From Verrucomicrobiaceae bacterium (GTDB lineage: Bacteria; Verrucomicrobiota; Verrucomicrobiia; Verrucomicrobiales; Verrucomicrobiaceae), in contig CANNQP010000003.1 in NCBI GenBank assembly GCA_947507875.1, positions 132,299-196,298 of the forward strand: a DNA stretch of 64,000 nucleotides, in the 5' to 3' direction. A program made the position numbers and the translations under genes. Below are positions 28,861-54,226 of this stretch, in pieces. Below the pieces are notes generated by a model. The model was not told where the DNA came from and made no database searches. It worked only from the letters and a program-made list of their open reading frames with translations. How positions within the stretch are numbered: the stretch's first letter is position 1; each line of letters starts with the position of its first letter.

Positions 28861-28890
28861 TTTGTCTTGGCCACAGGTCAGTTGGTCACT

Positions 28891-30342
28891 TCAGAGTGCT
28901 TTTCCAGCAGCTTCGGCGAACTTTGCTTCCGCCGCATCCACTAGGCGCACGGCTTTCCCTTCCCCCAAAATCAACAATCGAATCACTCGGTCAGCTGCCT
29001 GAAGATGAAGCTCTGTCACAGAATCTAGCGTCGGCTTGGCATCATAGCGCTGCGTGAGGCAGGAGCGCATCGCTTTGAAAAAAGCCAGCGCACTCTCGCG
29101 ACTATCCCATGCCGTCTCCCACAACGCCTGATCGCGATCATGCTCTGGCGCAGCATAGGCCAGTAGGCGATCCCCTACCCAGCCCTGAACGGCACGGCCG
29201 GCCTCCTCGTCACTGACATAAGCCCGCAGGGCCGTGAAGGTCGCGAAACGACCCAAGCGATCCTCCAGGAAAGGTGTCTCACCCATCATCTTGACCTGGT
29301 GAGGACCCGCTTTGATCAACATGGGCCGCTGCGCTTCCAGCAGCCGCTCAGGCTCGATGACTTCTGCGCAAGTCGCGGGTGGGGCAGAGTAAGCCGCATT
29401 GATCTGGGCAAATCCCCCTGTGCTGTGCAGCGACTGCGCGAGCTCAAAACCTCGAGCAAAGGGGAAGAGCGCCAGCTCTTTCAAATAGACCGGCATCTGC
29501 ACCTGATTCAGCGGATGATCTGGGTCCTCAGGAGGAAGATTACTCGTCGCTCGTGGAATGGCTTTTTCTAAGCTGAACAAAAAGCGCGTCAACGCGGCAT
29601 CCCCTATGATTAAGGCCAACCGCGCCAGCCTTTCATCCGTCGTCATCGACTGCTTGCCAGGAAACAAGATAACCCCGTATTCACGAAGCAACTGACCAAA
29701 GGCCACCGCAAATGCCCGGTCCGGTGCGGGCATACCTGGCGCGGGCGGATCATCCACCACGAGCAGCGTTCCCGCCTTTGCATCATACCAGCCTCCCAAT
29801 TGGCGAGCCAACACAGCCGCCAGAGGTGGCAACGGATCCACGGGTGCATCAATCCAGCCCAAGGCACGCAAAGCCAGGGCCAACTTGGGTGCCTCATCAC
29901 CAGGCTGCTGCGACCTCAGCCACGCCAGGATCGCTTTTTCTACTTCGCTCAATCCCACTCCACGCGAACTGAGCGGCAGAGCCTGCAATTTGCGGTAGTT
30001 CAACATCTCCAGCTCAATGCCCGTGAAATCAGGAAGCTCATCAGCAGGCGCAGGCACCGAATCCATTTTGGGAATACCCCGCTGTCCTTGCTGGCTCAGC
30101 TTTTGCAGCAGCTTTGTGTTATCGTCTTGCAGCGCTCCAACCTGTCCTTGCAGGTACTCGACTTGACCTTCGAGAAGACGAATCTGCTTCTTTAGATTTT
30201 CCTCAGACTCCTCCAGCTGCGTTTCCACTACCTCAGGCGACACCTTCGCCGACTGGACCTCCTCAGGATCGCGCAGAAACCAAGCCACCCCGATCCCGCT
30301 GACAAGCAGGATCAACAGAAGCGCGACAGGAGAAATCTTCAT
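28891..30342 (-). CDS. Hypothetical membrane-anchored protein with an N-terminal coiled coil
   Basis: 'MKISPVALLLILLVSGIGVAWF' is a TM anchor. It is followed by the heptad-like stretch 'EENLKKQIRLLEGQVEYLQGQVGALQDDNTKLLQKL' and then a ~380-aa domain with no motif I recognise. ATG 30342 was preferred over GTG 30360. The stop lies 30 nt upstream of the PSD1 gene. Confidence 0.6.
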   Translation of the reverse strand: MKISPVALLLILLVSGIGVAWFLRDPEEVQSAKVSPEVVETQLEESEENLKKQIRLLEGQVEYLQGQVGALQDDNTKLLQKLSQQGQRGIPKMDSVPAPADELPDFTGIELEMLNYRKLQALPLSSRGVGLSEVEKAILAWLRSQQPGDEAPKLALALRALGWIDAPVDPLPPLAAVLARQLGGWYDAKAGTLLVVDDPPAPGMPAPDRAFAVAFGQLLREYGVILFPGKQSMTTDERLARLALIIGDAALTRFLFSLEKAIPRATSNLPPEDPDHPLNQVQMPVYLKELALFPFARGFELAQSLHSTGGFAQINAAYSAPPATCAEVIEPERLLEAQRPMLIKAGPHQVKMMGETPFLEDRLGRFATFTALRAYVSDEEAGRAVQGWVGDRLLAYAAPEHDRDQALWETAWDSRESALAFFKAMRSCLTQRYDAKPTLDSVTELHLQAADRVIRLLILGEGKAVRLVDAAEAKFAEAAGKAL

Positions 30343-30473
30343 GGCAAAAGCGTGGGGCACTACCCGGTGATTTCAGCCCTCGTCAACCCCACTTCTGCTC
30401 ATTGACCTTCCTTTCTACATCAAACTCCACCTGGGCCAAAAAGTCTGTCTTGCCTCACCTGCCTCCTCTTCAG

Positions 30474-37290: not shown

Positions 37291-38022
37291 ATGAAATCTC
37301 TCATCGGCACTTTTTTATCCATCGGATCACCCGCCGTCACCGAACTAGCCGCTGAAGTCGGTTACGACTGGGTGCTGATCGACCTGGAGCATGGTTGCGA
37401 ATCCGAAGCCGCGCTGCCGAACCAACTCCGTGCTCTGCGTGGCAGCCAAACGCTAGCGATCGTGCGGGTCAGTGCACCTCATCCCGACCTGATTGGCCGG
37501 GCACTTGACTGGGGTGCTCAGGGGATCATGGTGCCGCACGTGGATACAGCTGAGCAGGCATGGCACTGCGTGCAGGCAGCTCATTATCCCCCCCGCGGTC
37601 ATCGTGGTGTTTCTCGCACGGTTCGGGCTTATGGTTATGGGATGAAAATTCCTGAAGGCGAGCTGCCGAAGCCAATCCTACTCGCTCAGATCGAGACTGC
37701 ACAAGGGGTGACCAATGCAGATCGGATCGCAGCCGTGCCAGGCATCGACGCGCTGTTCATCGGTCCGGCAGATTTGAATTATGACCTGAAGGCTAGGCCA
37801 TCATCACCAAGTTACGATGACTGCCTGCACGCTGTCGTGAAAGCCGCCAAGGACCATGGCAAGGGCAGCGGCATCCTTGTACGTCACTCCGATGACGTAG
37901 AAGAGTTGAAGCAACTCGGGCTGACCTGGATCGCCATGGACTCAGACCTCTCACTCGTCCGAGAGGGCTTCAAAAGAAATCTCGCCGCAGGTCAGCGGAT
38001 GGCGGAAGAGCTTGCTCAGTAG
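37291..38022 (+). CDS. HpcH/HpaI-family class II (2-keto-3-deoxy acid) aldolase
   Basis: 243 aa. Motifs are 'IGTFLSIGSPAVTELAAEVGYDWVLIDLEHG', 'AIVRVS...GAQGIMVPHVDTAEQA', 'PPRGHRG' and 'LLAQIET'. It starts 3 nt after the kinase stop. Confidence 0.85.
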   Translation: MKSLIGTFLSIGSPAVTELAAEVGYDWVLIDLEHGCESEAALPNQLRALRGSQTLAIVRVSAPHPDLIGRALDWGAQGIMVPHVDTAEQAWHCVQAAHYPPRGHRGVSRTVRAYGYGMKIPEGELPKPILLAQIETAQGVTNADRIAAVPGIDALFIGPADLNYDLKARPSSPSYDDCLHAVVKAAKDHGKGSGILVRHSDDVEELKQLGLTWIAMDSDLSLVREGFKRNLAAGQRMAEELAQ

Positions 38023-39527
38023 CTACGCGCAAAGACCACGCGGCGTGAGCTGGGCTTGCCAGTGAGGAAGCACTGACCATCTTCAACAAACTCATCGCTG
38101 ATCGGGATGCAGCGGATGGTCACCTTCATGTCTTTGGCAATCTGATCTTCCTCTTCATTACTGCCTGCCCAGTGCATGAGGGCAAAACCTCCTGGCCCAG
38201 CATCGGCAAAGAAGGCTTTGAATTCATCCAGCGTGTTCAGTTTCTTCATGTTCGCGTCACGCATTTCGGTGGCGCGCTTCAGCAAAGCGTCCTGGATGTC
38301 TTGAAGCTTTTCGGTGATATCGCGAATGAGGTCTTCTTTGGGAATGAATTCCTTCTGCTTCGGCGGGAGATCCCGGCGGGCGACCGCGACGGTGCGGCTG
38401 GCGATGTCACGTGGCCCCATCTCGATGCGCAGAGGCACGCCTTTCTTGATCCACTCCCAGTTCTTCGCCCCTCCCTGAAGGTCGCGTTTGTCCACGTGCA
38501 CGCGCAGGGGCTCGCCGTGGAAGCTCTGTGTGCGCAAGGTTTGCGCCAGCGCCTCGCAAGCGTCGATGATTTCTTGGCGGGTGTCTTCCTTCGGGGTGAC
38601 GGGCAGGATGACGACCTGATGCGGAGCCACCCGCGGTGGGAGGATGACGCCGTCGTCATCCCCATGGGCCATGATCAGCGTGCCAATGAGCCGAGTACTG
38701 ACCCCCCAACTTGTGGTGTGAACGAGCTGTCGCGTGTTATCACGGCCCAGGAACTGAATGTTCGCTGCCTTAGCGAAGTTTTGGCCGAGGTAATGCGAAG
38801 TGCCAGCCTGGATGGCTTTTCGGTCCTGCACCATCGCTTCAACAGTGTAGGTATTGACGGCACCTGGAAAGCGCTCGTTCTCCGTCTTCTCCCCAGGGAT
38901 GACCGGGATGGCCAGATGATTGCGGAGGAAATCCGCATACACCTTGTGCATGAGTTTGGTTTCCTGGATGGCTTCCTCGGCTGTCTCGTGCGCGGTGTGG
39001 CCTTCCTGCCAGAGGAATTCAGCCGTGCGGAGGAAGAGACGAGGACGCATCTCCCAACGCATCACGTTGGCCCACTGATTGATCAGCAGCGGCAGATCGC
39101 GGTAGCTTTCTACCCAGCGAGCAAAGGCGGCTCCGATGATTGTCTCGGAGGTCGGGCGGATGACGAAAGGCTCGGCAAGCTCACCCGTCGGGATCATCTT
39201 GGTGGTGCCATCGGGCTGCTTTTGCGCCTCCAGACGATGGTGCGTGACGACGGCACATTCGGTGGCAAAGCCTTCCGCGTGCTCAGCCTCCTTCTCCAGG
39301 TAGCTCAGAGGAATCAGAAGGGGAAAGTAGGCGTTCACATGCCCGGTCTCTTTGAACTTCACATCCAGCTGGCGCTGGATGTTTTCCCACAGACCATAGC
39401 CCCACGGCTTGATGACCATGCAGCCACGGACCTCGGAGTTTTCAGCGAGGTCAGCGGCGCGGACGACTTGCTGATACCATTCAGGGAAGTCTTTGTCGCG
39501 AGTAGGAGAAATAGCGGTCTGGCTCAT
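38016..39527 (-). CDS. proS: Proline--tRNA ligase (archaeal/eukaryote-like type)
   Basis: 503 aa. Motifs are 'FPEWYQQVVRAADLAENSEVRGCMVIKPWGYGLWE', 'LRTAEFLWQEGHTAH' and a terminal '...VFARSY'. It converges on the aldolase gene and overlaps it by 7 nt. Confidence 0.95.
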   Translation of the reverse strand: MSQTAISPTRDKDFPEWYQQVVRAADLAENSEVRGCMVIKPWGYGLWENIQRQLDVKFKETGHVNAYFPLLIPLSYLEKEAEHAEGFATECAVVTHHRLEAQKQPDGTTKMIPTGELAEPFVIRPTSETIIGAAFARWVESYRDLPLLINQWANVMRWEMRPRLFLRTAEFLWQEGHTAHETAEEAIQETKLMHKVYADFLRNHLAIPVIPGEKTENERFPGAVNTYTVEAMVQDRKAIQAGTSHYLGQNFAKAANIQFLGRDNTRQLVHTTSWGVSTRLIGTLIMAHGDDDGVILPPRVAPHQVVILPVTPKEDTRQEIIDACEALAQTLRTQSFHGEPLRVHVDKRDLQGGAKNWEWIKKGVPLRIEMGPRDIASRTVAVARRDLPPKQKEFIPKEDLIRDITEKLQDIQDALLKRATEMRDANMKKLNTLDEFKAFFADAGPGGFALMHWAGSNEEEDQIAKDMKVTIRCIPISDEFVEDGQCFLTGKPSSRRVVFARSY

Positions 39528-39599: not shown

Positions 39600-41144
39600 T
39601 CAGTCCAACGCACGCTTAGGAGCTGCGATGCGGATCTTTGGATCCTTCGGATTAGGGATGGCCGACTTGGTGAAACGTTGCACTTCAAAAGGAGTGACGT
39701 TGGAGGTCAGCTCGAGTTTGTCTAAAAACTCCCAGGTGGCTGGAACCCCGATCTGATCCGCCATTTGTCGTGCCTCCAGGTAAGTTGCATACGCATCGGC
39801 TTTCACCTGAAAAATTGCCACGCCTTGGGGATCAAGCTTAAGCTGCCTGAGCGTGCGCTGATAGGTCGAGCTTTCAGAGCGAATCTGTTCGAGAGTTTCG
39901 CCCCCCCCCGTCTTGGGCGACCATTGCAGCTGCACGTAGCTGGACCCAGGCTTCACCGAAGGCTTAAAGGTGTAAGAGGAGCTATTCATCATGGGGCTCG
40001 TGGCCGCTCTATCAAGGGTGGCAGCCAGCTTAAAGGCATCATAAATGGTCTTTTGCCGGACCACATTTTTGAAGCCGTCCATGTCCGCGAGTTCCTTGAC
40101 GAAGTAATCTAAGATTTCACGCGGAGTAAATTTAACCTCAACGACCTTGCTCCCCCAGCCGAAAGTCGCTTTGCCCCCGCCCGCTGCTGCTTTGATGATG
40201 GGCTTGGCCGGATCACGCGAGGGATCTAAAGCAAGCCACTTGGTGAAGTCACCTTTCGTCGCCTCAAGAATCGCTGTAGCTACGACAGGCAACGTCGAAC
40301 GTGTGACGAGTGCGATGCTTCCGATAGCCGTCAAAACCTGACGGCTCGTTGGGATTTTGGCATCACTCAGCACCTTGTGAGCCATGGCGACTTGATCGAG
40401 CTGAAAGGTATTGACCAGAGGGGCAAGCTCAGGCCAAGCCGCCTGGGCAGCCTGCGGACTGCCGAAGATATCAGCCAGCATTTTCGCAAAAGGATCGATC
40501 TTCACTTCTTTGTACTCAAATTGGCTGCGAATCTTTTCGAGCCCTTCGATCACTGGCTTAATGAACTCTTTTTCATTCAACAAGAGCACACCTTGTTTGG
40601 CCACGATCACACGCACTTCATTGGGTTCTTTAGGAAAGGGTCGCGGATTCGGCAGTCGCACGTACGTCGGCGGTTCTGGCTTGAAGACCGGCGTTTGATC
40701 CAGCAGCGCCTTGAGTCGCTCAACTTCGGCGAGAAGCTTTTCTGTCTCGGTTTTCTGCTTCTCTTTGTCCTTCTTCGCTTCCTCTAGCTTTTTGCGGAAG
40801 GTATCCAAGTCCATGAACTTCATCCTGGATTGCATTTCCGTGGTATCGACAGACTGCAATTGCTCCGCTGCTTTTTTCAGATCCTGCTCCGCCTGCTTTT
40901 TCTGTTCTTCCAGCTTCTTGGGATCAGCCGCTGGGGGCGGCAACTGATCTACTTTCTTCTTCATCTCTTCATGCTGCTCTTTGGTCACAGGTGGCAAATC
41001 CGAAAGGATTTTCTGAAGTGTGCGCGCCGTGTTAAGACTCATCATCACGAACACAATCATCAACACCCCGACGACGTTTGTCACCGCGTCCATCAAGGAG
41101 TCGAGATTCAGCTCTGAATCGCCGCCATTGTTGCGTTTGGCCAT
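39600..41144 (-). CDS. ExbD/TolR-like membrane anchor, followed by a charged coiled coil and a large C-terminal domain (514 aa)
   Basis: The N-terminus 'ELNLDSLMDAVTNVVGVLMIVFVMM' parallels the ExbD/TolR 'inltPliDvvfvLLiFF' anchor, including the Asp. About 100 aa of E/K/Q-rich heptad-like sequence follow. ExbD-like strands are 'VRVIVAKQGVLLLNEKEF' and 'GVAIFQVKADAYATYLEARQMADQIGV'. Confidence 0.6.
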   Translation of the reverse strand: MAKRNNGGDSELNLDSLMDAVTNVVGVLMIVFVMMSLNTARTLQKILSDLPPVTKEQHEEMKKKVDQLPPPAADPKKLEEQKKQAEQDLKKAAEQLQSVDTTEMQSRMKFMDLDTFRKKLEEAKKDKEKQKTETEKLLAEVERLKALLDQTPVFKPEPPTYVRLPNPRPFPKEPNEVRVIVAKQGVLLLNEKEFIKPVIEGLEKIRSQFEYKEVKIDPFAKMLADIFGSPQAAQAAWPELAPLVNTFQLDQVAMAHKVLSDAKIPTSRQVLTAIGSIALVTRSTLPVVATAILEATKGDFTKWLALDPSRDPAKPIIKAAAGGGKATFGWGSKVVEVKFTPREILDYFVKELADMDGFKNVVRQKTIYDAFKLAATLDRAATSPMMNSSSYTFKPSVKPGSSYVQLQWSPKTGGGETLEQIRSESSTYQRTLRQLKLDPQGVAIFQVKADAYATYLEARQMADQIGVPATWEFLDKLELTSNVTPFEVQRFTKSAIPNPKDPKIRIAAPKRALD

Positions 41145-41162
41145 GGGCTAAAAAATCATGTG

Positions 41163-42059
41163 TTATTTAGGAATCGTAGGCGCAGGAATTCCCACGGGTG
41201 TCGCGGGCGGTGGGGCGACTTTACCACGAAACTTCTCAAACAAGGCAAGATCGAGCTGGCCCCGCCCTGGAATCGGCAGTTTACCCACACGTAGATTGTA
41301 GTCAGACTCGGCACGACCTGCCCCATTGTTGAATGCGCCCTGTCCGTCATCCCTAACTAAATAGAGAATCAGGCTATTCTTGTCTTTCGCAGCTTCTGCT
41401 AGGAAATGATTGTATTCAGGATTGCCAAAAACGATGTCAGGGGATGCACCAAGGCGGAAATCCCCAGCCCCCCAAGGATCCAAAAGCCGGAGTGAACCTG
41501 CAGAACACTCCACAAAAAAAACCTTGGTATTTTCAGGCAGGCCGGAGCCTGAGGGCTGAACCACCACAGGTGGCACTTTCTTGTCTGGCGGCACTTGCCG
41601 CTTCTGAATTTCCGCCATCAGCTCTTGAATAAGCTTTCGGCTCTCTTGCTGCTGTTCTTTCATGCCCTTGATCTCGGTCAGCAGATCGTCCAATTGCTTT
41701 TGAAGATTGGTAGCGATTTCCAGATTCTGCTTTTGTACTTCCTTCGATGAATCCATCAACTGCCTCAGCTTCAGGTATCTCTGCTGCCTCTCTTGAACAT
41801 CCTGCTGTAGCTTCTCGAGTTCAGCCAGTTTTTCTTTGAGCAGGGCATCCAACTTTTGACGTTCCTCGAGTTCCTTGATCATGCGCAGGTATTCCTGAGC
41901 CATTTTGATCTCCTCAGGAGTTCGACCTTCTGCCTTCCCTGCTTGGGCAATGACCAAGACGACAATGATCAACACCAGCGCGCCGATAAGGCAGGCCAGA
42001 ATGCTGAGGAAGGGAAAGAGTGAAACTTCACTTCCTGATGACTCACGCCGCTGTGCCAT
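41163..42059 (-). CDS. ExbD/TolR-like anchor lacking the TM Asp, followed by a ~110-aa coiled coil and a C-terminal alpha/beta domain (298 aa)
   Basis: The anchor 'EVSLFPFLSILACLIGALVLIIVVLVI' has Ser where ExbD/TolR carry Asp. The coil region reads 'EYLRMIKELEERQKLDALLKEKLAELEKLQQDVQERQQRYLKLRQL...'. The C-terminal part reads 'VFFVECSAGSLRLL...LILYLVRDDGQGAFN'. Confidence 0.55.
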   Translation of the reverse strand: MAQRRESSGSEVSLFPFLSILACLIGALVLIIVVLVIAQAGKAEGRTPEEIKMAQEYLRMIKELEERQKLDALLKEKLAELEKLQQDVQERQQRYLKLRQLMDSSKEVQKQNLEIATNLQKQLDDLLTEIKGMKEQQQESRKLIQELMAEIQKRQVPPDKKVPPVVVQPSGSGLPENTKVFFVECSAGSLRLLDPWGAGDFRLGASPDIVFGNPEYNHFLAEAAKDKNSLILYLVRDDGQGAFNNGAGRAESDYNLRVGKLPIPGRGQLDLALFEKFRGKVAPPPATPVGIPAPTIPK

Positions 42060-42082
42060 GATCGTGGGGAGGTTCTGGTGGA

Positions 42083-43528
42083 CTACTCAGCACGGCTAAA
42101 CCAGCTTTTTTTCTTCACTTGGTGAATCAAGATCTGTTTGGTGCCGAGTTCCTTGAGCACATTGTTCAGGCCTTGTATGCCACTTGCCAGCGCACGATTG
42201 TATTCAGTGCTTTGGCGAACGGCATCCGTCACCGCCGTGGTGAAGTCCTCACGCATTCGATTCACGGCTTGGCCAAACTGGGCATCGACGTGCTCCTGAT
42301 GAGCCGCTGCACGCTTATCGAGATTGTCTGCATAATCACGAATCTTTGCTGAGAGCGCATTGAGATCTGTCAGAAATTCGCGCTGGGACACTGCGACCGC
42401 TTTCACCAGATGTTCCATCAAACCACCGGCATCTCCCGCCACTGCGGCAGAACCCGCACCGCCATCATTCAGCCTTGGCATCAGCACCTCATTGCAGAAA
42501 GCATCAATGTTGTTGAGGTTATCGTCTTCCGCTTTCGCCAGCACATTCATGGGGAAGTTGAGGAACATCGCCAGCACAAGACCGAGCAGTGTCGTGTCGA
42601 AAGCTGTGCCCAGACCACTGGTGACATTGCTGATGGATCCCATGATTTTATCCATGTCAGAGACATTGCTCAAATCCATGGCACCAATCGCCTGAGATAG
42701 ACCGAGCACTGTTCCGATGAAGCCGAGAATCGGAATGGCCCAAAGGAAGACTTTGGTTAGCGCATAGCTGCCGCCAATTCGCGCGCTATCAATGTTGCTC
42801 TGCGCACTAAGCATGTTGGTCACATCGCCATTGTTTTGGCGAATCTCAAACAACTCCAAGCCCTTGCGAATGCGGTTCACCATCATGCTATCTCGCAGAC
42901 GGGCTGGCAGGCCATAAAGGTGATCAATGAATTGCCCCACGTTGTCTGCAGACACCTCCTGGTTGATGTCCGTTGGCAGGACATCAAGGTACATAGCCGC
43001 TTTTTGATGACGCAGCTTTTGCAGCTTCAGGTAGAGAATCGCGACCGCCCACCAGAAGAAGAAGGTCTCCGCGTAGTTCACCCAAGTTCTCTCATAGAAA
43101 AGATCGTGGATGTAATCCATCGCATTCACCGGAGGCTTACCTAACTCACCCATTCCAAATGGATACAAGATGCCATACCAAGCCAGAGTCGCGACAGCAC
43201 CGATCCCAAGAGCAAGCAACGGATTCGGATTGGCTGGATCTTTTTCCTCCCAGCCTCCACGAGCGGCTCGATGTTGATCGTAAAACTGTGTGCCGTTCGA
43301 TGGCGCAGATGCATTGGATGCGGAGATTTCCCCATGGTCTGCCCAGTTTTCTGCTGCTGAAGTTGATGCCACTGAGGGGGGAGGAAGCCCAGACGGTGGC
43401 GGCAGAGCAACTCCCAGCTCCGAGGGTACAGCGATTTTGCTATTGCATCCAGGGCAGCGAACCATCTTACCGGCCATATCAGGCTCGGCCTTGAGCTGCA
43501 TGTCACAGGTGGGGCATTTGAATTTCAC
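42083..43528 (-). CDS. MotA/TolQ/ExbB-family proton-channel protein with an N-terminal zinc ribbon and a C-terminal helical tail
   Basis: The zinc ribbon is 'KFKCPTCDMQLKAEPDMAGKMVRCPGCNSKI' (two CxxC). A Pro-rich linker and TM helices follow. The signature region 'IPILGFIGTVLGLSQAIGAM...SGLGTAFDTTLLGLVLAMFLNFP' matches the MotA/ExbB family, and ~130 aa of tail follow it. The start codon is GTG. Confidence 0.8.
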   Translation of the reverse strand: MKFKCPTCDMQLKAEPDMAGKMVRCPGCNSKIAVPSELGVALPPPSGLPPPSVASTSAAENWADHGEISASNASAPSNGTQFYDQHRAARGGWEEKDPANPNPLLALGIGAVATLAWYGILYPFGMGELGKPPVNAMDYIHDLFYERTWVNYAETFFFWWAVAILYLKLQKLRHQKAAMYLDVLPTDINQEVSADNVGQFIDHLYGLPARLRDSMMVNRIRKGLELFEIRQNNGDVTNMLSAQSNIDSARIGGSYALTKVFLWAIPILGFIGTVLGLSQAIGAMDLSNVSDMDKIMGSISNVTSGLGTAFDTTLLGLVLAMFLNFPMNVLAKAEDDNLNNIDAFCNEVLMPRLNDGGAGSAAVAGDAGGLMEHLVKAVAVSQREFLTDLNALSAKIRDYADNLDKRAAAHQEHVDAQFGQAVNRMREDFTTAVTDAVRQSTEYNRALASGIQGLNNVLKELGTKQILIHQVKKKSWFSRAE

Positions 43529-43805
43529 GTCAGTGTTCTGGGGTTTGGAGAAAGAAACGGCAAGAGGCTAAACGCGGCCGTGGATAGACAATCCGCCTGA
43601 AAAAACGCATCAAATTCTTTTTCCCTTCTACCTTTGCATTATCCTTTTTCGCAGCGAGGTGCCAGAAACTGTCCGCTCCATGCAACCAATGGATGAACTC
43701 TGCTCGACTGAGGAAAATTTGTTTTGATGACAAGTCCGGCTGACCAAGGTTTTGCCTACCGTTCTATGGATTTGCAGGCATGGCGTTCGTGGATGGTCAC
43801 AACAC

Positions 43806-46466
43806 TCAGGCCACCGCACTGACATCCAGCTTCACGAAGTTGAGCAACTCCTCGGCACTCATCTCGGCGAGCATTTGCTCTGCCCCAGCACCATCACCCA
43901 CCAGGTCTTGCGCGAGGGATAGCTTGTCATCAAGGAGAGCATCAATGCGCTGCTCGATGGTGCCTTGGCAGATGAATTTGTGGACGATGACGTTCTTTTG
44001 CTGGCCGATGCGGAAGGCGCGGTCGGTGGCCTGGTTTTCGACGGCGGGGTTCCACCAGCGGTCAAAGTGGATGACGTGGCTGGCCGCGGTGAGGTTGAGG
44101 CCGGTGCCACCGGCTTTGACGCTGATCACCATGAAGGGCGGGCCGCCGGGCTGCTGGAAGGCTTCCACGAGCTCGGGGCGCTTTTTCACGCTGGTGCCGC
44201 CGTGCAGGATGAGGCCCTCGCGGCCAAACACGGTGCTCAGGTAGCGGGCGAGCGGATCGCAGGTTTCCTGGAATTGCGTGAAGATGAGGGCGCGCTCGCG
44301 TTTCTCGGCGAGGTCGCCGCAGATCTCAGCAAGGCGGGCGAATTTGCCACTATCGACGGGAGCCCACGCACCGTCGCCGTTCCAATGGCTGGGGTGGTTG
44401 CAGACTTGCTTGAACTTGAGCAGGAAGCCGAGCACGAGGCCTTGTCGCTGGATGGGCTCCATCTGTTTGTCGGCGAGCATCTTGGCGAGTTGATCGACGA
44501 GCTTCGCGTAAATCGTCGCCTGACGTTTCGTTAGGCCGCAGAAAGCTTTCAACTCGATCTTGTCCGGCAGATCGGTGATGATGCGGCGATCCGTCTTCAT
44601 GCGGCGCAGGATGTAGGGCCGCACGAGGCGACGCAGCGGCGCGTAGCCTTTGCTGGACTTCGCACAGTGTTTCACGGCATCGGCAAAGGCCGCGCTGCCG
44701 CCGAGCAGGCCGGGATTGAGGAAATCGAAGAGGCTCCAAAGATCGCCGGGTCGGTTTTCGACCGGTGTACCGGTCAAAGCGATGCGCACGGGTGCCTGCA
44801 AAGCCTTCACCGCCTTCGCGGAGCCGCTGCCGCTGTTTTTGATGGCCTGCGCTTCATCGAGAATCACCATGCTCCAGGCGTGCGAGAGCCATGCGTCGGT
44901 CTTTTGCAGGAATTGATAGGTCGTGAGCATCACATCAAAGCCACGCAAGGCTTCCGCCGGATGTGTCGCGGCCAACGCGAGCGTTTCGCGATCGGTCTGC
45001 GAGGGATGCGCGATGAAGAGTCGTAGATCAGGCGCGAACTTCGCGACTTCGGCTTTCCAGTTTCCGATCAATGAAGCGGGCACGATCAGCAACGCAGGAG
45101 CGCGGAGCCCCTCTCCCGCCTTCTTTGCCAAAAGCAGTGCGATCACCTGCACCGTCTTCCCAAGGCCCATGTCATCGGCGAGGCAGGCTCCGAGGCCCAT
45201 CTGCGTCATGAACTTCAACCATGCGAAACCTTGGCGCTGATACGGACGCAGCGTCGCGCGCAGATTTTCGGGCGGAGAGGCTTCTTCGGGGTTTTGGAGC
45301 TTCTGCAGTACTTCGGCGAGTTTTTCGCCGACGACGACGGTACTCCATTCGGGCACGACTTCGGCCACATCGTCTTCGGCAGCCGTTTTGACCTCGCCAA
45401 AGCCTGCGAGGAGTCGCATGCCGTCGAGAAAGCCGATACCGCCCTCGCCAGTGGCGTTTTGCACGCGTTTCCAGTGCGCCATGACCTGCTGCAATTTTTC
45501 GCCATCGACCTCGACCCACTTGCCTCGCAGTGAAACGAGCCCCGTGTCGGCGCTGAGCAGCTTTTCGAGCTCCGCAGGCGTCAGCGGCTCGCCATCGAGG
45601 CTTTGCTCGATCTTGAAGCTGAGCAGCGTCCCGGCATGCAGCGAGGTCTTCTTCGGCGCATCAATCGTCACCGCGACGGTGGGACGCGAGGTCTTGCCGG
45701 CCTTCCACCAGTCCGGCAGCTTCATGATGATGCCGCATTCTTGAAATACGGTGGTCTCGCGTAGCACTCGGTAAGCCTCTTGCGGCGACATCGCCATCGG
45801 TTGGAAGAGTCGCTTCGATTCGAGCCACTCGCGCAGCAGCTTCGATTTGTCCGCCGCGAGCCTCACGGGCTCCAGCAGCGCATTCAGCGCCGTTTGATCT
45901 TTCTGCCCCGCATAAAGCTGAAGCGCCCGCGCCAGCGGCAGATGCTGCGGCTGGCCGGTAGCGCCGAGTTTCTCCGTGAAGGTCGCGAGGAAGGCAAAGG
46001 GACGTAGCGTGTCCGTCTTGTTCTCCGCGAGGTGAAAGCTCACGCGACCGACCGCATGCCACGCCGGGCATTCCTCGCGCAGCCAGGCCGCCACGTTTCC
46101 ACCAGCTACTGCTGCGAGATGCTGAGCTAACTCTTGCCAGAGCCTAACGAGCAGTTCTGGCGTTAAGTGTTCGGCACCTGGAAAACACGGCGCTGCGGCG
46201 AGCAAGACTTCTGCTTCTTCGCCGGACAAAGCCGGGACGTGCAGGGCATCCAACGTTTGGCAAAGGCGCGCGAAAAAAGCCCGAGCCAGTTCGCGCAGCC
46301 AGCGCCAGCTGGGTTCCAGTTCAGCCGTGAGCCAATCGGTCGCCAGTAGGTGCAAACAGCCAGCGACACCTTTCGTCGAGACCAATCGCCGATCCTCCGG
46401 CGTGTTTGGTTTTCCTTCCCAAACCCAAGCGCCTTCGGGAGTTAAAACTGGGCTGAGGGTGAGCAT
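43806..46466 (-). CDS. SNF2-family DEAD/DEAH-box helicase with an N-terminal bacterial SNF2-associated (DUF3670-like) region
   Basis: 886 aa. Motif I is 'LADDMGLGKTVQVIALL' and motif II is 'VILDEAQAIKNSGS'. The helicase-C region contains 'ALIFTQFQE', 'GGTGLNLTAASHVIHFDRWWNPAVENQATDRAFRIGQ'. The N-terminal region contains 'LVSLRGKWVEVDGEKL'. Confidence 0.9.
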   Translation of the reverse strand: MLTLSPVLTPEGAWVWEGKPNTPEDRRLVSTKGVAGCLHLLATDWLTAELEPSWRWLRELARAFFARLCQTLDALHVPALSGEEAEVLLAAAPCFPGAEHLTPELLVRLWQELAQHLAAVAGGNVAAWLREECPAWHAVGRVSFHLAENKTDTLRPFAFLATFTEKLGATGQPQHLPLARALQLYAGQKDQTALNALLEPVRLAADKSKLLREWLESKRLFQPMAMSPQEAYRVLRETTVFQECGIIMKLPDWWKAGKTSRPTVAVTIDAPKKTSLHAGTLLSFKIEQSLDGEPLTPAELEKLLSADTGLVSLRGKWVEVDGEKLQQVMAHWKRVQNATGEGGIGFLDGMRLLAGFGEVKTAAEDDVAEVVPEWSTVVVGEKLAEVLQKLQNPEEASPPENLRATLRPYQRQGFAWLKFMTQMGLGACLADDMGLGKTVQVIALLLAKKAGEGLRAPALLIVPASLIGNWKAEVAKFAPDLRLFIAHPSQTDRETLALAATHPAEALRGFDVMLTTYQFLQKTDAWLSHAWSMVILDEAQAIKNSGSGSAKAVKALQAPVRIALTGTPVENRPGDLWSLFDFLNPGLLGGSAAFADAVKHCAKSSKGYAPLRRLVRPYILRRMKTDRRIITDLPDKIELKAFCGLTKRQATIYAKLVDQLAKMLADKQMEPIQRQGLVLGFLLKFKQVCNHPSHWNGDGAWAPVDSGKFARLAEICGDLAEKRERALIFTQFQETCDPLARYLSTVFGREGLILHGGTSVKKRPELVEAFQQPGGPPFMVISVKAGGTGLNLTAASHVIHFDRWWNPAVENQATDRAFRIGQQKNVIVHKFICQGTIEQRIDALLDDKLSLAQDLVGDGAGAEQMLAEMSAEELLNFVKLDVSAVA

Positions 46467-46481
46467 GCGCGGAGGCTTGGA

Positions 46482-47132
46482 TTACCAAGCAAAGGAAAGC
46501 CGAATTCCAATTTTGCCAGCCAGGATGTAGGCTGGCTCAGCATCGAAAAAGGGCTGCGCGCTGCCAAAGGTCAGCCTTTTTTCCAAAGGCATGGTATCGT
46601 CGGCACGATTCCAAAGCACGAGGCAAGCAAGGTCCGTGTGGCGGCTGCGGTAAACGATGCCATCAAAACGGCTGGGATGCCGTGCGATGCGCTCTGCCCA
46701 GAGCTGCGGCAGCTGCAAATCCGTGGCGTAGAGGGTTCCAGCATCAATGCCCAAAGCGAGTCTCGTTTCAGGCTGTGTGAGATCGCAGAGGCGGAGAGCC
46801 TCGGGCAGGCCCGTCGTCTGGAGGTAGTTCCAACGCAGCGCCTGCTGACGTGGGATGACGTAGAGTTCATCGCCATTAGCGCGCTGAGCGGCAAAGCGGT
46901 CTCCCCACACTTCAGCGACGGTGGTTTCCTGGTCCACGGCCAGATAAACGCAGGGGAAATCCCCCGAGATTGGGGTCAATCGTGAGCCCTTGGAGGCAAA
47001 GAACTGGGAAGGAAACTCGACTCGGCAGAGGCGATGCCAACCCAGCGTGGCCCACATCCCAGGAGACCTGATGGGCAATGCGATCTCATCAAACCGTGTC
47101 TGGTCAGGTGGCTGGCGTAGGTCCCGCGTCAT
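46482..47132 (-). CDS. RES-domain toxin (NAD+-targeting MbcT/Res family)
   Basis: 216 aa. 'GSRLTPISGDFPCVYLAVDQETTVAEV' and 'FDGIVYRSRHTDLACLVLWN' match the RES domain pattern. It lies 6 nt downstream of the antitoxin gene. Confidence 0.8.
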   Translation of the reverse strand: MTRDLRQPPDQTRFDEIALPIRSPGMWATLGWHRLCRVEFPSQFFASKGSRLTPISGDFPCVYLAVDQETTVAEVWGDRFAAQRANGDELYVIPRQQALRWNYLQTTGLPEALRLCDLTQPETRLALGIDAGTLYATDLQLPQLWAERIARHPSRFDGIVYRSRHTDLACLVLWNRADDTMPLEKRLTFGSAQPFFDAEPAYILAGKIGIRLSFAW

Positions 47133-47138
47133 GCTGAC

Positions 47139-47723
47139 TTAGCGTGCATCTGCCTCCACCGCAGCGAGGACTGAGTCCAACTGACCTTGGCGAAGGGCAA
47201 GCAGGGGTGTTTTCCCGCCCGTGAGGGGATGCGCCTGAAGGAGGAAGGCAAACGCGGCCAAGGGGCTGTCATCGAGATGATCACGCACAGCAGCGAGCAC
47301 CTCAGGCAGTCCTGGCAACAAACCTCCCTCTGGGCGAAACTGCCAGACTGGAACGAGGTAATCGCCACCACCAGAACGGTAGGCCAAGACCTTACCTTGG
47401 CGAATCTGGTGGGCCAAAGCCTGCCGCGTGACGGGCTGAGGTTTGCGAAAGAGATAACGAGCCTTTTCTACGCCAACACAGCCACCCTCTTCAGCCAGCA
47501 GGACAGTCAGGCCTTCATCTGAAGTGGCATGCCCCTCCGCTACTTGTGCTGGCAGCCGCTCCCGGATGACATCTCCCATCAGGGCACTCACGCGCCCCAG
47601 ACTGAGCCCGAGCTGAAGGCCTGCATTCAGGAGTGCACGGATTTGCCCTCCCAAGACTTCGGTGACGGGAACACTAGGGCTGAGCACAGCAGCCTCTTGA
47701 AGTTTGTTTTCTGTAATGCTCAT
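47139..47723 (-). CDS. Xre/MbcA/ParS-type antitoxin (C-terminal DUF2384 toxin-binding domain)
   Basis: 194 aa. The C-terminus 'LLQAHPLTGGKTPLLALRQGQLDSVLAAVEA' matches the DUF2384 motif. The central part 'VTRQALAHQIRQGKVLAYRSGG' is HTH-like. Confidence 0.7.
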   Translation of the reverse strand: MSITENKLQEAAVLSPSVPVTEVLGGQIRALLNAGLQLGLSLGRVSALMGDVIRERLPAQVAEGHATSDEGLTVLLAEEGGCVGVEKARYLFRKPQPVTRQALAHQIRQGKVLAYRSGGGDYLVPVWQFRPEGGLLPGLPEVLAAVRDHLDDSPLAAFAFLLQAHPLTGGKTPLLALRQGQLDSVLAAVEADAR

Positions 47724-52723: not shown

Positions 52724-54226
52724 TCACTCCTTCTGCCGTGCCTCCACCGGCCGCCACTCCACCTGCTCAAAACGCGTCGAACTCATATAACTCCCCAGCC
52801 CCAGGGCCATCGGGCGGGGATTGGGTCCCAGTTCCCAAACCGGCGTGATGCTCATCGGCAGACCCCGGGTCACAAAGGTCTTTTTCAATACCCCATCGAC
52901 ACTCACCCGAACTTCGTCGGGCCGCACCTCGACGAACAGTTCATGCGGCTCGCCATTCACCAGGGGAAACCGAAATCCATAGCCGGACCTGAGGTCCTGC
53001 CCGTTGATCAGTTGCACCCCGGCGAGCCCTTCTTTCCAGGCGTCCAGTTCCACACTCGCCATGCGTCCGCTGCTGCGGAAGAACAACGCCATCGAATACT
53101 GCCCCGTCAGCCGCGTCAGGCGCAGCCGCACGTCGTAGGACTCCGGCAGTTCGTCCTCCAGCTTCACCACACAGATGTTCGGGCCGGACGTCAGCATCCC
53201 GTTCTCACTGCGCCAGTCGCCGCTCAGCACATCCTCCCAAATGCGCGTGCCCGCCGCGGCATCCCGCCATTCCCCAGGCACCTCGGCTGCCGCGGGACTC
53301 TCCGGCCAAAGCGCCACGCCGCTGCCCAGCAAAACCAAGGCTCCCATCAGCCAGGGCCACCAGCGGCGCGGCCGCGGCACCTCCAGGGCTCTCATGAACT
53401 CGGCCACGGTGGCAAACCGCTCCGCGGGCTCCGGCCGCAGCGCACGCATCACCGCCGCTCCCAGCGGCTCCGGGATCTCCTTCCTGACCCGATGAGGGGC
53501 GTCAAAACTGCCGCGCGGTGTCCGACCGGTCAGCAACTCATACGCCATCACGCCCAGCGCGAAGACATCCAGCCGCGCGTCCGCCTCCGCGCCCCGAAAC
53601 TGCTCCGGCGCCATGTAGTCCACGGTCCCCACCACAGTGCCGCTCAGCGTCAATCTCGTGCTGGCCTCATGCAGCGGCAGGGCGAGCCCAAAGTCCGTCA
53701 CACGCGCCGTGCCTGCGGCATCCAGGAGCACATTCTCCGGCTTCATGTCGCGATGAATCACCCCGCTGGCATGCGCCGCCTCCAGACCGGCCGCAATCTC
53801 CCGCAGGATTCGCAGCGCTTCCGCCACCGGCAGTCCGTTCGGATGCTGCCGCAGCTTTTCCCGCAGACTGCCTCCCTCCACAAACTCCATCACAATCGCT
53901 GCTCCGTCGTCAGTGCGCTGAAAATCATGCACCGCCACGATGTTCGGATGCCGCAGCCGCGCCATCACCCGTGCCTCGCGCTCCAGGCGCTCCAGGAACT
54001 GCGGGTCCTCCGCCAGCTCACTCGCCAGCACCTTCACCGCCACCTCGCGATCCAGGCTGACCTGTCGGCCCAGATACACCGCGCCCATGCCGCCGCGTCC
54101 GATCGGCGTTTCGATCTCAATCCCCACGACTTCGATGGAACGGCCCTCCCCGGTCAGCCCCTGCGCCATCAAAGCCTCCGGCTGCAAACCGGAGAGGCGT
54201 CGGCGAGGGAAGCGTGAGTCGGACAT
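52724..54226 (-). CDS. Ser/Thr protein kinase with a TM segment and an extracytoplasmic concanavalin/LamG-like domain
   Basis: Kinase motifs are 'GRGGMGAVYLGRQ...VAVKVL', 'HRDMKPENVLL', 'DFGLA' and 'APE'. 'WWPWLMGALVLLGSGVALW' is a TM segment. The C-terminal ~190 aa look like a beta-rich domain. Confidence 0.9.
   Translation of the reverse strand: MSDSRFPRRRLSGLQPEALMAQGLTGEGRSIEVVGIEIETPIGRGGMGAVYLGRQVSLDREVAVKVLASELAEDPQFLERLEREARVMARLRHPNIVAVHDFQRTDDGAAIVMEFVEGGSLREKLRQHPNGLPVAEALRILREIAAGLEAAHASGVIHRDMKPENVLLDAAGTARVTDFGLALPLHEASTRLTLSGTVVGTVDYMAPEQFRGAEADARLDVFALGVMAYELLTGRTPRGSFDAPHRVRKEIPEPLGAAVMRALRPEPAERFATVAEFMRALEVPRPRRWWPWLMGALVLLGSGVALWPESPAAAEVPGEWRDAAAGTRIWEDVLSGDWRSENGMLTSGPNICVVKLEDELPESYDVRLRLTRLTGQYSMALFFRSSGRMASVELDAWKEGLAGVQLINGQDLRSGYGFRFPLVNGEPHELFVEVRPDEVRVSVDGVLKKTFVTRGLPMSITPVWELGPNPRPMALGLGSYMSSTRFEQVEWRPVEARQKE

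Follow-up and report, generated by a model that had tools for sequence, protein, structure and literature searches.

A conserved three-gene MotA/ExbB-family module of Verrucomicrobia with two stalk-bearing B-like subunits and two co-varying forms of its membrane core

Three adjacent genes of a Verrucomicrobiaceae bacterium (assembly GCA_947507875.1, contig CANNQP010000003.1, positions 132,299–196,298 of the forward strand; this whole stretch of 64,000 nt is called the window) raise the question of whether their products act together as one ion-driven membrane machine, and what such a machine would serve. Gene 1 encodes an A subunit of the MotA/ExbB family and genes 2 and 3 encode two B-like subunits; we refer to the three genes as the trio. 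An initial annotation of the window had read the trio as a motor of the 5:2 type and had linked it to a neighboring Xre-RES-SNF2 array. We surveyed one genome per species, found 235 loci with relatives of gene 3 and examined the best 80 of these, which came from 80 different and mostly incomplete assemblies, all labeled Verrucomicrobiaceae or close relatives. Related loci are designated L001–L085, with L081, L083, L084 and L085 as four distant loci. With a probability of roughly 0.6, the products of the trio join into a single machine in the inner membrane that belongs to the MotA/ExbB superfamily ('5:2 rotary motor'), namely a heteromeric envelope force transducer of the 5:1:1 type. Literature searches retrieved no description of the trio. 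We regard it as an uncharacterized variant of the 5:2 motor class that is most likely conserved in Verrucomicrobia as a single copy.

A new result is that the trio has two co-varying forms of its membrane core, termed S and D. In form S, the form of the window, the transmembrane (TM) helix of gene 2 contains 'EVSLFPFLSIL' with Ser13 and Ser19, the latter at the position of the ExbD Asp, gene 3 contains 'ELNLDSLMDA' with Asn13, Asp15, Ser16 and Asp19, and TM4 of gene 1 contains 'AFDTTLLG'. The corresponding segments of form D are 'EILLVPFLDIL' with Asp19 in gene 2, 'ELPFVALMDT' with Asp19 only in gene 3, and 'AFDATLLG' in gene 1, where position 312 has Ala instead of the Thr of form S. Gene 3 D19 was invariant in 119 sequences; of 121 gene 2 homologues, 81 had Ser and 40 had Asp at position 19. 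The initial annotation had seen the anchor Asp in gene 3 only and Ser in gene 2, which is true within the window (Asp19 versus Ser19). Co-variation of the three membrane segments was followed in 65–79 loci plus the four distant loci. Among linked loci, 37 combined Asp in gene 2 with PFVA in gene 3, 35 combined Ser with NLDS (NMDS in one case), and none was mixed. The distant loci obeyed the same rule, L081 being of form D and L083–L085 of form S with '(L/M)DSL(L/M)D' and 'AFDTTL'. The number of Asp residues per pair of genes 2 and 3 was constant, with two in both forms. Columns that separated the forms perfectly were 13, 19, 22, 23, 27, 36 and 42 in gene 2, 13–16, 20, 21 and 29 in gene 3, and 138–159, 230, 260, 286 and 312 in gene 1. 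All of them lie in or beside membrane segments except position 230 of gene 1, which is a cytoplasmic R/K site.

Identity of the gene 3 anchor was 0.94 within forms and 0.56 between forms, and the values for the gene 3 C-terminal domain were 0.62 and 0.60. On a neighbor-joining tree of the distal soluble parts of the trio (958 columns, 65 loci) the form changed 9 times (7–11 in bootstraps), compared to 22 changes with shuffled labels. Since the forms interleave on this tree, shared ancestry alone was rejected as the cause of the co-variation. Two paralogous trios per genome, as a source of the two forms, were also rejected, because the best 80 of 235 loci represent 80 different, though mostly incomplete, assemblies. 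The form D locus L006 was 94% identical to the form S locus L003 over residues 1–70 of gene 1, 150–285 of gene 2 and 110–514 of gene 3, while its inner soluble segments were nearest to form D lineages (87%). The same mosaic pattern was present in L057. These mosaics, with native flanks and inner segments of the foreign form, point to block replacement of the membrane core. A block of about 2.5 kb, from about residue 74 of gene 1 to about residue 105 of gene 3, has therefore been swapped between lineages at least seven times, always as a set. This joint movement is the strongest evidence here that the products of the trio would form one complex, in which both anchors are coupled to the pore of gene 1.

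The family assignment of gene 1 was clear. It matched PF01618 (MotA_ExbB) with 43.8 bits (gathering cutoff 22.9), and the same family was present in all 120 gene 1 homologues among the matches listed. More than 1,330 homologues were found, which are named MotA/TolQ/ExbB in Prosthecobacter and other Verrucomicrobiales. Judged by the names of homologues, the window belongs to Verrucomicrobiaceae and is close to Prosthecobacter. The layout that had been proposed for this protein, a zinc ribbon and a Pro-rich linker followed by a MotA/TolQ/ExbB core and a helical tail, was confirmed. The Cys residues of the ribbon can be read in the sequence (C5, C8, C25, C28), and the N-terminus gave weak zinc-ribbon matches in Pfam and the PDB. 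The ribbon is kept in L081, L083 and L084 and is missing in L085. In location and Cys spacing it resembles the GltJ/ZitP zinc ribbon (C5, C8, C28, C31), which belongs to a class of protein-docking modules (PMC11135422). TM3 of gene 1 contains 'LGFIGTVLGL' with T273, and TM4 contains 'AFDTTLLGL' with T312 and T313. Pore-lining Thr residues in the last two TM helices are T148/T181 in ExbB and T158/T186 in PomA, and T273 and T313 of gene 1 correspond to the PomA pair. T273, D311 and T313 were invariant in 34 sequences. The tail comprises about 140 helical residues and ends with the conserved motif 'LKELxxKQ...KKxWFSR', which is kept in L081–L085; residues 378–470 showed a weak match to ZorA tails. 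When a family profile of 34 gene 1 members was compared to the PDB, ZorA (8vvn, E = 0.001) was the sole match, spanning TM3, a loop of about 20 residues, TM4 and the helical cytoplasmic tail. ExbB, TolQ, MotA, PomA and GldL were not recovered at E ≤ 1 in this search. Both the closest relative, L005, and the distant L081 keep the GTG start of gene 1 (start region 43502–43528). A database entry identical to gene 1 has 472 aa (98% coverage), as do many homologues; this length would fit a start at Met10, about nine codons further on, with loss of the first CxxC.

AlphaFold2 models of genes 2 and 3 were based on alignments of about 120 sequences and had a mean predicted local distance difference test score (pLDDT) of 79. 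In the gene 2 model the TM helix (15–43) is followed by a single continuous helix (48–154, about 16 nm if straight), a Pro-rich segment and an α/β domain (about 178–280) with the order β-β-β-α-β-α-β. Gene 3 was modeled with a TM helix (14–49; ELNLDSLMDAVTNVVG, which holds D15 and D19), segmented helices (55–150), a β-β-α unit, an insert of about 235 aa (206–437), a β-α-β unit and a Pro/Lys-rich tail, and pLDDT exceeded 90 over most of residues 180–490. The insert was predicted to consist of a helical bundle with a small α/β part. It is shorter in relatives of about 370–390 aa (Limisphaerales and similar lineages), and no recognizable relative of it emerged (Foldseek against the PDB, nothing at E ≤ 0.001). 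At the C-terminus of gene 3 ('...IRIAAPKRALD-COOH') I506 and D514 are invariant and P509 nearly so, and the terminal (L/I/V)-D is retained in L081 and L083–L085.

Genes 2 and 3 are paralogs over their N-terminal halves (first 180 residues), for which hhalign gave a probability of 96%. The length from motif to globular domain was 146–152 residues in gene 2 and 145–151 residues in gene 3 in 75 loci, the distant ones included, and these matched and near-invariant lengths suggest a paired stalk with a fixed reach. It could still be argued that genes 2 and 3 are not paired: each might build its own homodimeric axle with gene 1, which would mean two alternative motors, or gene 2 might compete with gene 3 as a regulator or plug that does not conduct. 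Both proteins have an Asp in form D and each could conduct, and flagellar alternative stators that share one partner are known. Form S does not fit well with this idea, as its gene 2 lacks the carboxylate and is yet as conserved as gene 3. Moreover, position 19 of gene 2 and position 15 of gene 3 switch jointly without exception, leaving two Asp residues per pair, the stalk lengths match, and the two genes are always adjacent and never alone where contigs permit checking. We therefore consider unpaired subunits unlikely. Strict co-variation, the paralogy of genes 2 and 3 and the matched stalks rather support the original proposal of a 5:2-type motor with stalks on its B-like subunits.

The description of genes 2 and 3 as ExbD/TolR-like was borne out in part: the motif, the topology and the order of secondary-structure elements agree with it, but no significant profile or fold match was obtained. 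The N-termini of both proteins fit the pattern E-h-x-h-x-P-h-h-D of the ExbD/TolR transpore helix, and ELNLDSLMDAVTNVVGVLMIVFV of gene 3 and EILLVPFLDILCSLIGVL of form D gene 2 resemble DINVTPFIDVMLVLLIIFMV of E. coli ExbD. In gene 3 the Asp of this helix (D19) is invariant; in gene 2 the equivalent residue is Asp19 or Ser19, depending on whether the form is D or S. For hhalign, the ExbD and TolR reference sequences from E. coli were entered by hand rather than taken from a database record. The alignment with this ExbD reference placed position 19 of gene 2 opposite D25, at an overall probability of 29%. Both modeled C-terminal domains share the order β-β-(β)-α-β-α-β, which we take to be the order of ExbD/TolR. 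A gene 3 construct without the coiled coil and the insert aligned to positions 6–85 of Pfam ExbD in the correct register (E = 0.0098), with a score of 16.4 bits that lies under the ExbD cutoff of 25.4.

How could the three proteins work together? Gene 1 would form the ion-conducting ring, a pentamer by analogy with solved relatives, with its zinc ribbon and its C-terminal helical tail facing the cytoplasm. The TM helices of genes 2 and 3 would sit together inside this ring as a heterodimeric axle (5:1:1). Both axle helices would extend as a matched stalk of about 150 residues from the Asp position to the globular domain, about 100 of them helical; spanning the periplasm, this stalk would bear two ExbD-like α/β domains. 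Gene 3 would contribute, in addition, its domain of 235 residues and the C-terminal peptide ('...APKRALD'), which is conserved. As ions pass the axle carboxylates, the ring would turn relative to the axle. The stalk would transmit this work to a target in the wall or the outer membrane, and the B subunits would in this way take the part that TonB, TolA or the GldM shaft have in other systems. The zinc ribbon and the tail motif 'KKGWFSR' of gene 1 may tether or regulate the ring from the cytoplasm. Stoichiometry, rotation, topology and envelope output are inferred here.

Several results weigh against this machine or against the ExbD-like nature of its B subunits. Full-length genes 2 and 3 gave nothing at E ≤ 1 with PF02472, and ExbD was not among the 25 most-matched Pfam families of 121 gene 2 homologues. 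A gene 2 profile without the coiled coil matched TolR in the PDB with E = 1.3 only, and hhalign against the hand-entered E. coli ExbD/TolR sequences reached a probability of 29%. Foldseek with the full-length models returned nothing at E ≤ 0.001, TolR (5by4) ranking 48th with a probability of 0.57 and a TM-score of 0.41. The axle of form S would have its Asp residues on one helix only, and we know of no characterized 5:2 motor in which the axle Asp residues are confined to one helix. Despite about nine form switches, the co-variation is partly confounded by shared ancestry. Finally, no conserved envelope partner gene stands beside the trio in the flanks of the 80 loci, and an output in the envelope is therefore a guess.

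Other searches with genes 2 and 3 gave a similar picture. When all 121 homologues of gene 2 and ten distant relatives of gene 3 were scanned against Pfam, only coiled-coil families matched, and sequence searches of genes 2 and 3 against the PDB and NCBIfam likewise gave nothing beyond coiled-coil noise. RNase-H-like folds and ribosomal protein S11 headed the Foldseek matches, probably an effect of the long helices on the comparison. PADLOC matches of genes 2 and 3 to SMC-like defence proteins were rejected as coiled-coil matches (E > 0.001). Four gene 2 homologues (P0307, P0308, P0326, P0347) have a precomputed match to PF28006.1, a family that was not in the local Pfam scan. The likeness of genes 2 and 3 to ExbD/TolR can be demonstrated only in part; we refer to them as B-like subunits with an ExbD-type transpore helix and do not file them under PF02472.

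The features of gene 1 would also allow an output on the other side of the membrane. In this case the periplasmic domains would only anchor the axle to the wall, and the rotating gene 1 ring would act through its zinc ribbon and tail on a partner in the cytoplasm or the membrane. Comparable cases are the action of MotA on FliG and the signaling by the ZorA tail in Zorya. Among solved structures ZorA comes closest to gene 1, the tail region included, and the zinc ribbon, the tail and the 'KKGWFSR' motif of gene 1 are strongly conserved. Zinc ribbons of the GltJ/ZitP type are protein-docking modules (PMC11135422). However, an OmpA-like peptidoglycan-binding domain was not detectable in genes 2 and 3 by Pfam or Foldseek, L085 does without the zinc ribbon, and no cytoplasmic partner gene is conserved nearby in the flanks of the 80 loci. 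A cytoplasmic output is quite unlikely in our view.

The trio was strongly conserved. Gene order and orientation (gene 1-gene 2-gene 3) were kept in 80 of 80 loci as determined by tblastn, gene 1 being missing only at contig ends, and each of the 80 assemblies contained the trio once. A protein profile search of 1.84 billion representative proteins revealed 407 gene 3 relatives at E ≤ 1e-10, many of them with 360–390 aa and a shorter insert. Those with names stem from Limisphaerales, Akkermansiaceae and Verrucomicrobiales and are all called 'hypothetical protein', which is also the name of genes 2 and 3 in the entries seen; a few gene 2 homologues in JGI are named ExbD or MotB. The four distant loci harbor the same trio, with a MotA_ExbB-like protein of 453–552 aa followed by proteins of 265–333 aa and 376–563 aa. 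Upstream neighbors in these loci are ffh/plsY/gpsA, proS, a sulfatase gene and a β-lactamase-like gene (NamZ), and radical-SAM, FG-GAP/PQQ or NADH-dehydrogenase genes are located downstream. When ORFs (open reading frames) from the flanks of the 80 loci were clustered, no fourth conserved gene was found, no family occurring in more than 24 loci. The commonest neighbors were ribBA-ribH-nusB (about 24 loci) and ftsY (about 21 loci). We concluded that the class keeps the trio as a core module in single copy and that it is not a defence island.

In the window the trio is adjoined at 43806–47723 (minus strand) by genes for an SNF2 helicase with DUF3670, a RES-domain protein and an upstream partner of the latter of 194 aa without a Pfam match, the last two probably being a RES toxin-antitoxin pair. 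This array had led the initial annotation to suggest a role in defence or envelope sensing. The survey does not support such a role: SNF2 adjoins the trio in three of the 80 loci (L001, L003, L005), and RES with its upstream partner in one. The junction between SNF2 and gene 1 (43529–43805) holds insertions of 1.7–3.7 kb in relatives. In L005 a block of 3.7 kb (L005 3862–7323), which is absent from the window, intervenes between SNF2 and gene 1, and the adjacency of the two genes in the window is therefore incidental. By its ORF translations alone, this block encodes an IS200/RAYT-like Y1 transposase and macro-domain, ADP-ribosylglycohydrolase and NUDIX proteins. The initial annotation had stated that its idea would be refuted by a trio that is a core feature next to proS and independent of defence genes. 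Core status and this independence were found, although proS is not the usual neighbor and adjoined the trio in only two of the 80 loci. In the window (38016–39527), L002 and L005 proS lies downstream of the trio and encodes an archaeal-type prolyl-tRNA synthetase; in the distant L083 (3334–5103) it lies upstream and encodes the bacterial type with an editing domain. The recurrence of proS may be a coincidence, as most loci lack it.

A Zorya-like or other membrane-anchored anti-phage system, which would include the SNF2 helicase and the RES protein, is thus highly improbable. Gene 1 has weak ZorA matches (PADLOC, E = 3e-9; NCBIfam, 27.8 bits), and the adjacent SNF2 helicase matches ZorD models with E = 2e-121. 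The best ZorA model nevertheless gave gene 1 only these 27.8 bits against a cutoff of 100 (curated cutoffs range from 100 to 700, the other models scored lower). The SNF2 protein matches DpdE equally well (2e-116), and its ZorD match therefore reflects the SNF2 helicase core. Neither a peptidoglycan-binding domain of the ZorB type nor ZorC was present, and the trio is single-copy, strongly conserved and placed in housekeeping contexts across the class. The defence reading was rejected on the basis of synteny.

Could the trio instead be an ordinary energizer of the ExbB-ExbD type, which serves receptors or Tol-Pal through a TonB or TolA encoded elsewhere, with the coiled coils as decoration of the lineage? 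Gene 1 falls into the same superfamily (PF01618), the genes around the trio are housekeeping genes, and an ExbB gene with two ExbD genes is common in other phyla. In addition, tonB is often located apart from exbBD (PMC12204202). On the other hand, the gene 1 profile matches no ExbB or TolQ structure and only ZorA, and the NCBIfam TolQ model, which has a cutoff of 221, gave gene 1 a score of 14.6 bits. Genes 2 and 3 exceed ExbD two- to fourfold in length and are predicted to bring their own periplasm-spanning stalk, the part that is normally supplied by TonB or TolA. As noted initially, TonB, OmpA-like domains and TonB-dependent receptors are absent; Pfam found none in the 43 proteins of the window. 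TonB, with its SHLS-motif TM helix, Pro-rich spacer and TonB_C, and receptors were found neither in the trio nor in the window or the recurrent flanks, and the TM helix of gene 2 has no His. Likewise, no TolA, TolB or Pal domains occur beside the trio, be it in the window or in any of 84 related loci. We regard an ordinary energizer as rather unlikely.

The differences between the two forms of the core may concern the coupling ion. The Vibrio PomA sequence that we used for comparison was entered by hand and agrees with every residue number in PMC10374538. BLASTP of TM3–TM4 of gene 1 against this PomA sequence gave 31% identity, with T273 opposite T158 and T312–T313 opposite T185–T186. H+-driven stators have Ala at PomA positions 158 and 185 (PMC10374538). 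Form S has the full Thr triad of the PomA type (T273, T312, T313) and form D has Ala at the position of T185; T273 is Thr in both forms. In TM4, Thr-Thr versus Ala-Thr is the same substitution that separates Na+ from H+ stators among flagellar stators (PMC10374538). The form S axle is also more polar on its cytoplasmic side (N13, D15, S16 and D19 in gene 3, S13 and S19 in gene 2), and its site is of a kind that could bind Na+. Form D, with Ala312 and one Asp per axle helix, is like H+-driven motors of the ExbB/ExbD type. By this analogy, forms S and D might be alternative ion pathways of one motor, the core block being swapped at least seven times between lineages of Verrucomicrobiaceae by homologous recombination; we put this forward as a tentative and rather doubtful idea. 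What would stay native in such an exchange is the N-terminal, cytoplasmic part of gene 1 together with the portions of genes 2 and 3 that lie farther out in the periplasm. If true, it would be a natural and repeated swap of the coupling ion in a 5:2 motor, and the first case of both axle carboxylates on the same subunit.

To our knowledge, few outputs of 5:2 ion-driven motors are established, namely the flagellum, Ton, Tol, gliding/type IX secretion and Zorya. A heteromeric motor as proposed here would add a type of output with a built-in heterodimeric stalk, present throughout the class including gut and freshwater lineages, and its target would fill a gap in how Verrucomicrobia energize their envelope. 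The co-adapted core cassettes would be natural chimeras for ion-selectivity residues, and could show whether a 5:2 motor runs with both carboxylates on one axle helix.

The trio consists of three ORFs on the minus strand (Table 1), and their co-directional arrangement with gaps of 23 and 18 nt is as described initially. The region upstream of gene 1 has the length that had been given for it, but it is not strongly AT-rich. It contains a sigma-70-like match at 43665–43638 (minus strand), which is a consensus match only, and the promoter and terminator scan of the trio locus was uninformative. G+C content was 52.4% for the trio and 59.7% for the whole window; two earlier hand counts were reproduced (50.8% at 40681–40800, 66.7% at 57001–57060). 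The G+C content at third codon positions was 0.54–0.62 for the trio and 0.71–0.84 for proS, glmS, ahcY and SNF2. The low value of the trio may reflect its recombination history or a codon usage suited to a different expression level.

Table 1. Features of the trio locus, with positions in the window.
Feature	Position	Strand	Basis or remark
Upstream intergenic region of the trio	43529..43805	-	277 bp, 48.4% G+C; separates gene 1 from the SNF2 gene
Gene 1, MotA/ExbB-family A subunit, 481 aa, GTG start	42083..43528	-	Pfam PF01618
Gene 1 residues 1–36, N-terminal zinc ribbon, predicted cytoplasmic	43421..43528	-	Two CxxC in the sequence
Gene 1 residues 219–339, MotA_ExbB core, TM3 and TM4	42512..42874	-	Stretch matched by Pfam
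Gene 1 residues 340–481, predicted cytoplasmic helical tail	42086..42511	-	Weak ZorA-tail matches; conserved C-terminal motif
Gene 2, B-like subunit, 298 aa	41163..42059	-	AlphaFold2 model, pLDDT 79; 692 homologues
Gene 3, B-like subunit, 514 aa	39600..41144	-	AlphaFold2 model, mean pLDDT 79
Gene 3 residues 205–438, inserted domain, about 235 aa	39831..40532	-	Confident AlphaFold2 model
Gene 3 residues 483–514, Pro/Lys-rich C-terminal tail	39603..39698	-	Conserved terminal residues

Other parts of the window were also annotated. A long cluster of the polysaccharide/lipopolysaccharide type at 600–25743 (minus strand) comprises a Wzy-like polymerase and many GT1/GT2/GT4/GT9 glycosyltransferases, together with FkbM-type and S-adenosylmethionine-dependent methyltransferases, an ABC-2 permease with ATPase, an rmlA/rmlB-like pair and a carbamoyltransferase. 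At 25999–30360 (minus strand) a planctomycete-type cytochrome protein (PSCyt1/PSCyt2/PSD1, also DUF1549/DUF1553) is encoded, followed by an ORF of 489 aa without a Pfam match at 1e-5. At 55068–60872 (plus strand) a giant protein of 1,934 aa is encoded with about 65% G+C, containing Big_5, PKD, β-propeller-like and RoxA-like cytochrome c pieces; a Ser/Thr protein kinase gene lies near it at 52724–54226.

How does the trio compare to known systems? In Zorya, ZorA is the sole solved structure matched by the gene 1 family profile (E = 0.001). The tail of gene 1 has about 140 residues compared to several hundred in ZorA, the B subunits of the trio are without a peptidoglycan-binding domain, ZorC and ZorD are not conserved, and the trio is a core gene set rather than a mobile island. 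The trio had been called an inversion of the Zorya layout. This is incomplete: the stalks are on the B-like subunits, but gene 1 keeps a cytoplasmic tail like that of ZorA. From flagellar stators the trio differs in having neither a torque-generating loop nor a peptidoglycan-binding B domain, and the relocation of an Asp between two different B subunits has no counterpart there.

The AglR-AglQ-AglS system of Myxococcus gliding likewise consists of one A-type gene and two different B-type genes. AglQ and AglS are short TolR-like proteins and are not known to have stalks. In GldL-GldM/PorL-PorM, GldM/PorM is likewise a B-type subunit with its own long periplasmic shaft, which reaches an outer-membrane machine. 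GldM differs by stacked globular domains in place of a coiled coil, GldL and GldM were not recovered by searches with the trio, and no Glt or type IX secretion genes are located near the trio.

The Ton and Tol systems share with the trio a Pfam MotA_ExbB A subunit, B subunits with an N-terminal transpore helix of the pattern E-h-x-h-x-P-h-h-D and an Asp near its cytoplasmic end, a housekeeping context and the modeled strand and helix order of the C-terminal α/β domain. They differ in that the trio has two different B subunits of 298 and 514 aa, compared to about 140 aa, in which about 100 residues of helical stalk separate the TM helix from the 'V-x-L-P' motif. The A subunit of the trio bears a cytoplasmic zinc ribbon and a tail of 140 residues, a TonB/TolA partner with an SHLS motif is lacking in the window and the recurrent flanks, and profile and fold searches with the trio recovered no ExbB, TolQ, ExbD or TolR significantly.

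TolQ-like genes with heterologous pairs of transpore-helix proteins carrying von Willebrand factor A (vWA) domains, and without tolR/exbD, were described for Verrucomicrobia and Proteobacteria (Mol Biol Evol 2025, PMC12204202). Such pairs were proposed to transduce force directly from inside the pentamer (PMC12204202). In genes 2 and 3 no Pfam VWA match was found at E ≤ 1, and no vWA domain was among the listed Foldseek matches. The trio would follow the same logic as these vWA transducers, with one TolQ-like gene and two different transpore-helix proteins, but genes 2 and 3 carry long predicted coiled coils and ExbD-like domains instead.

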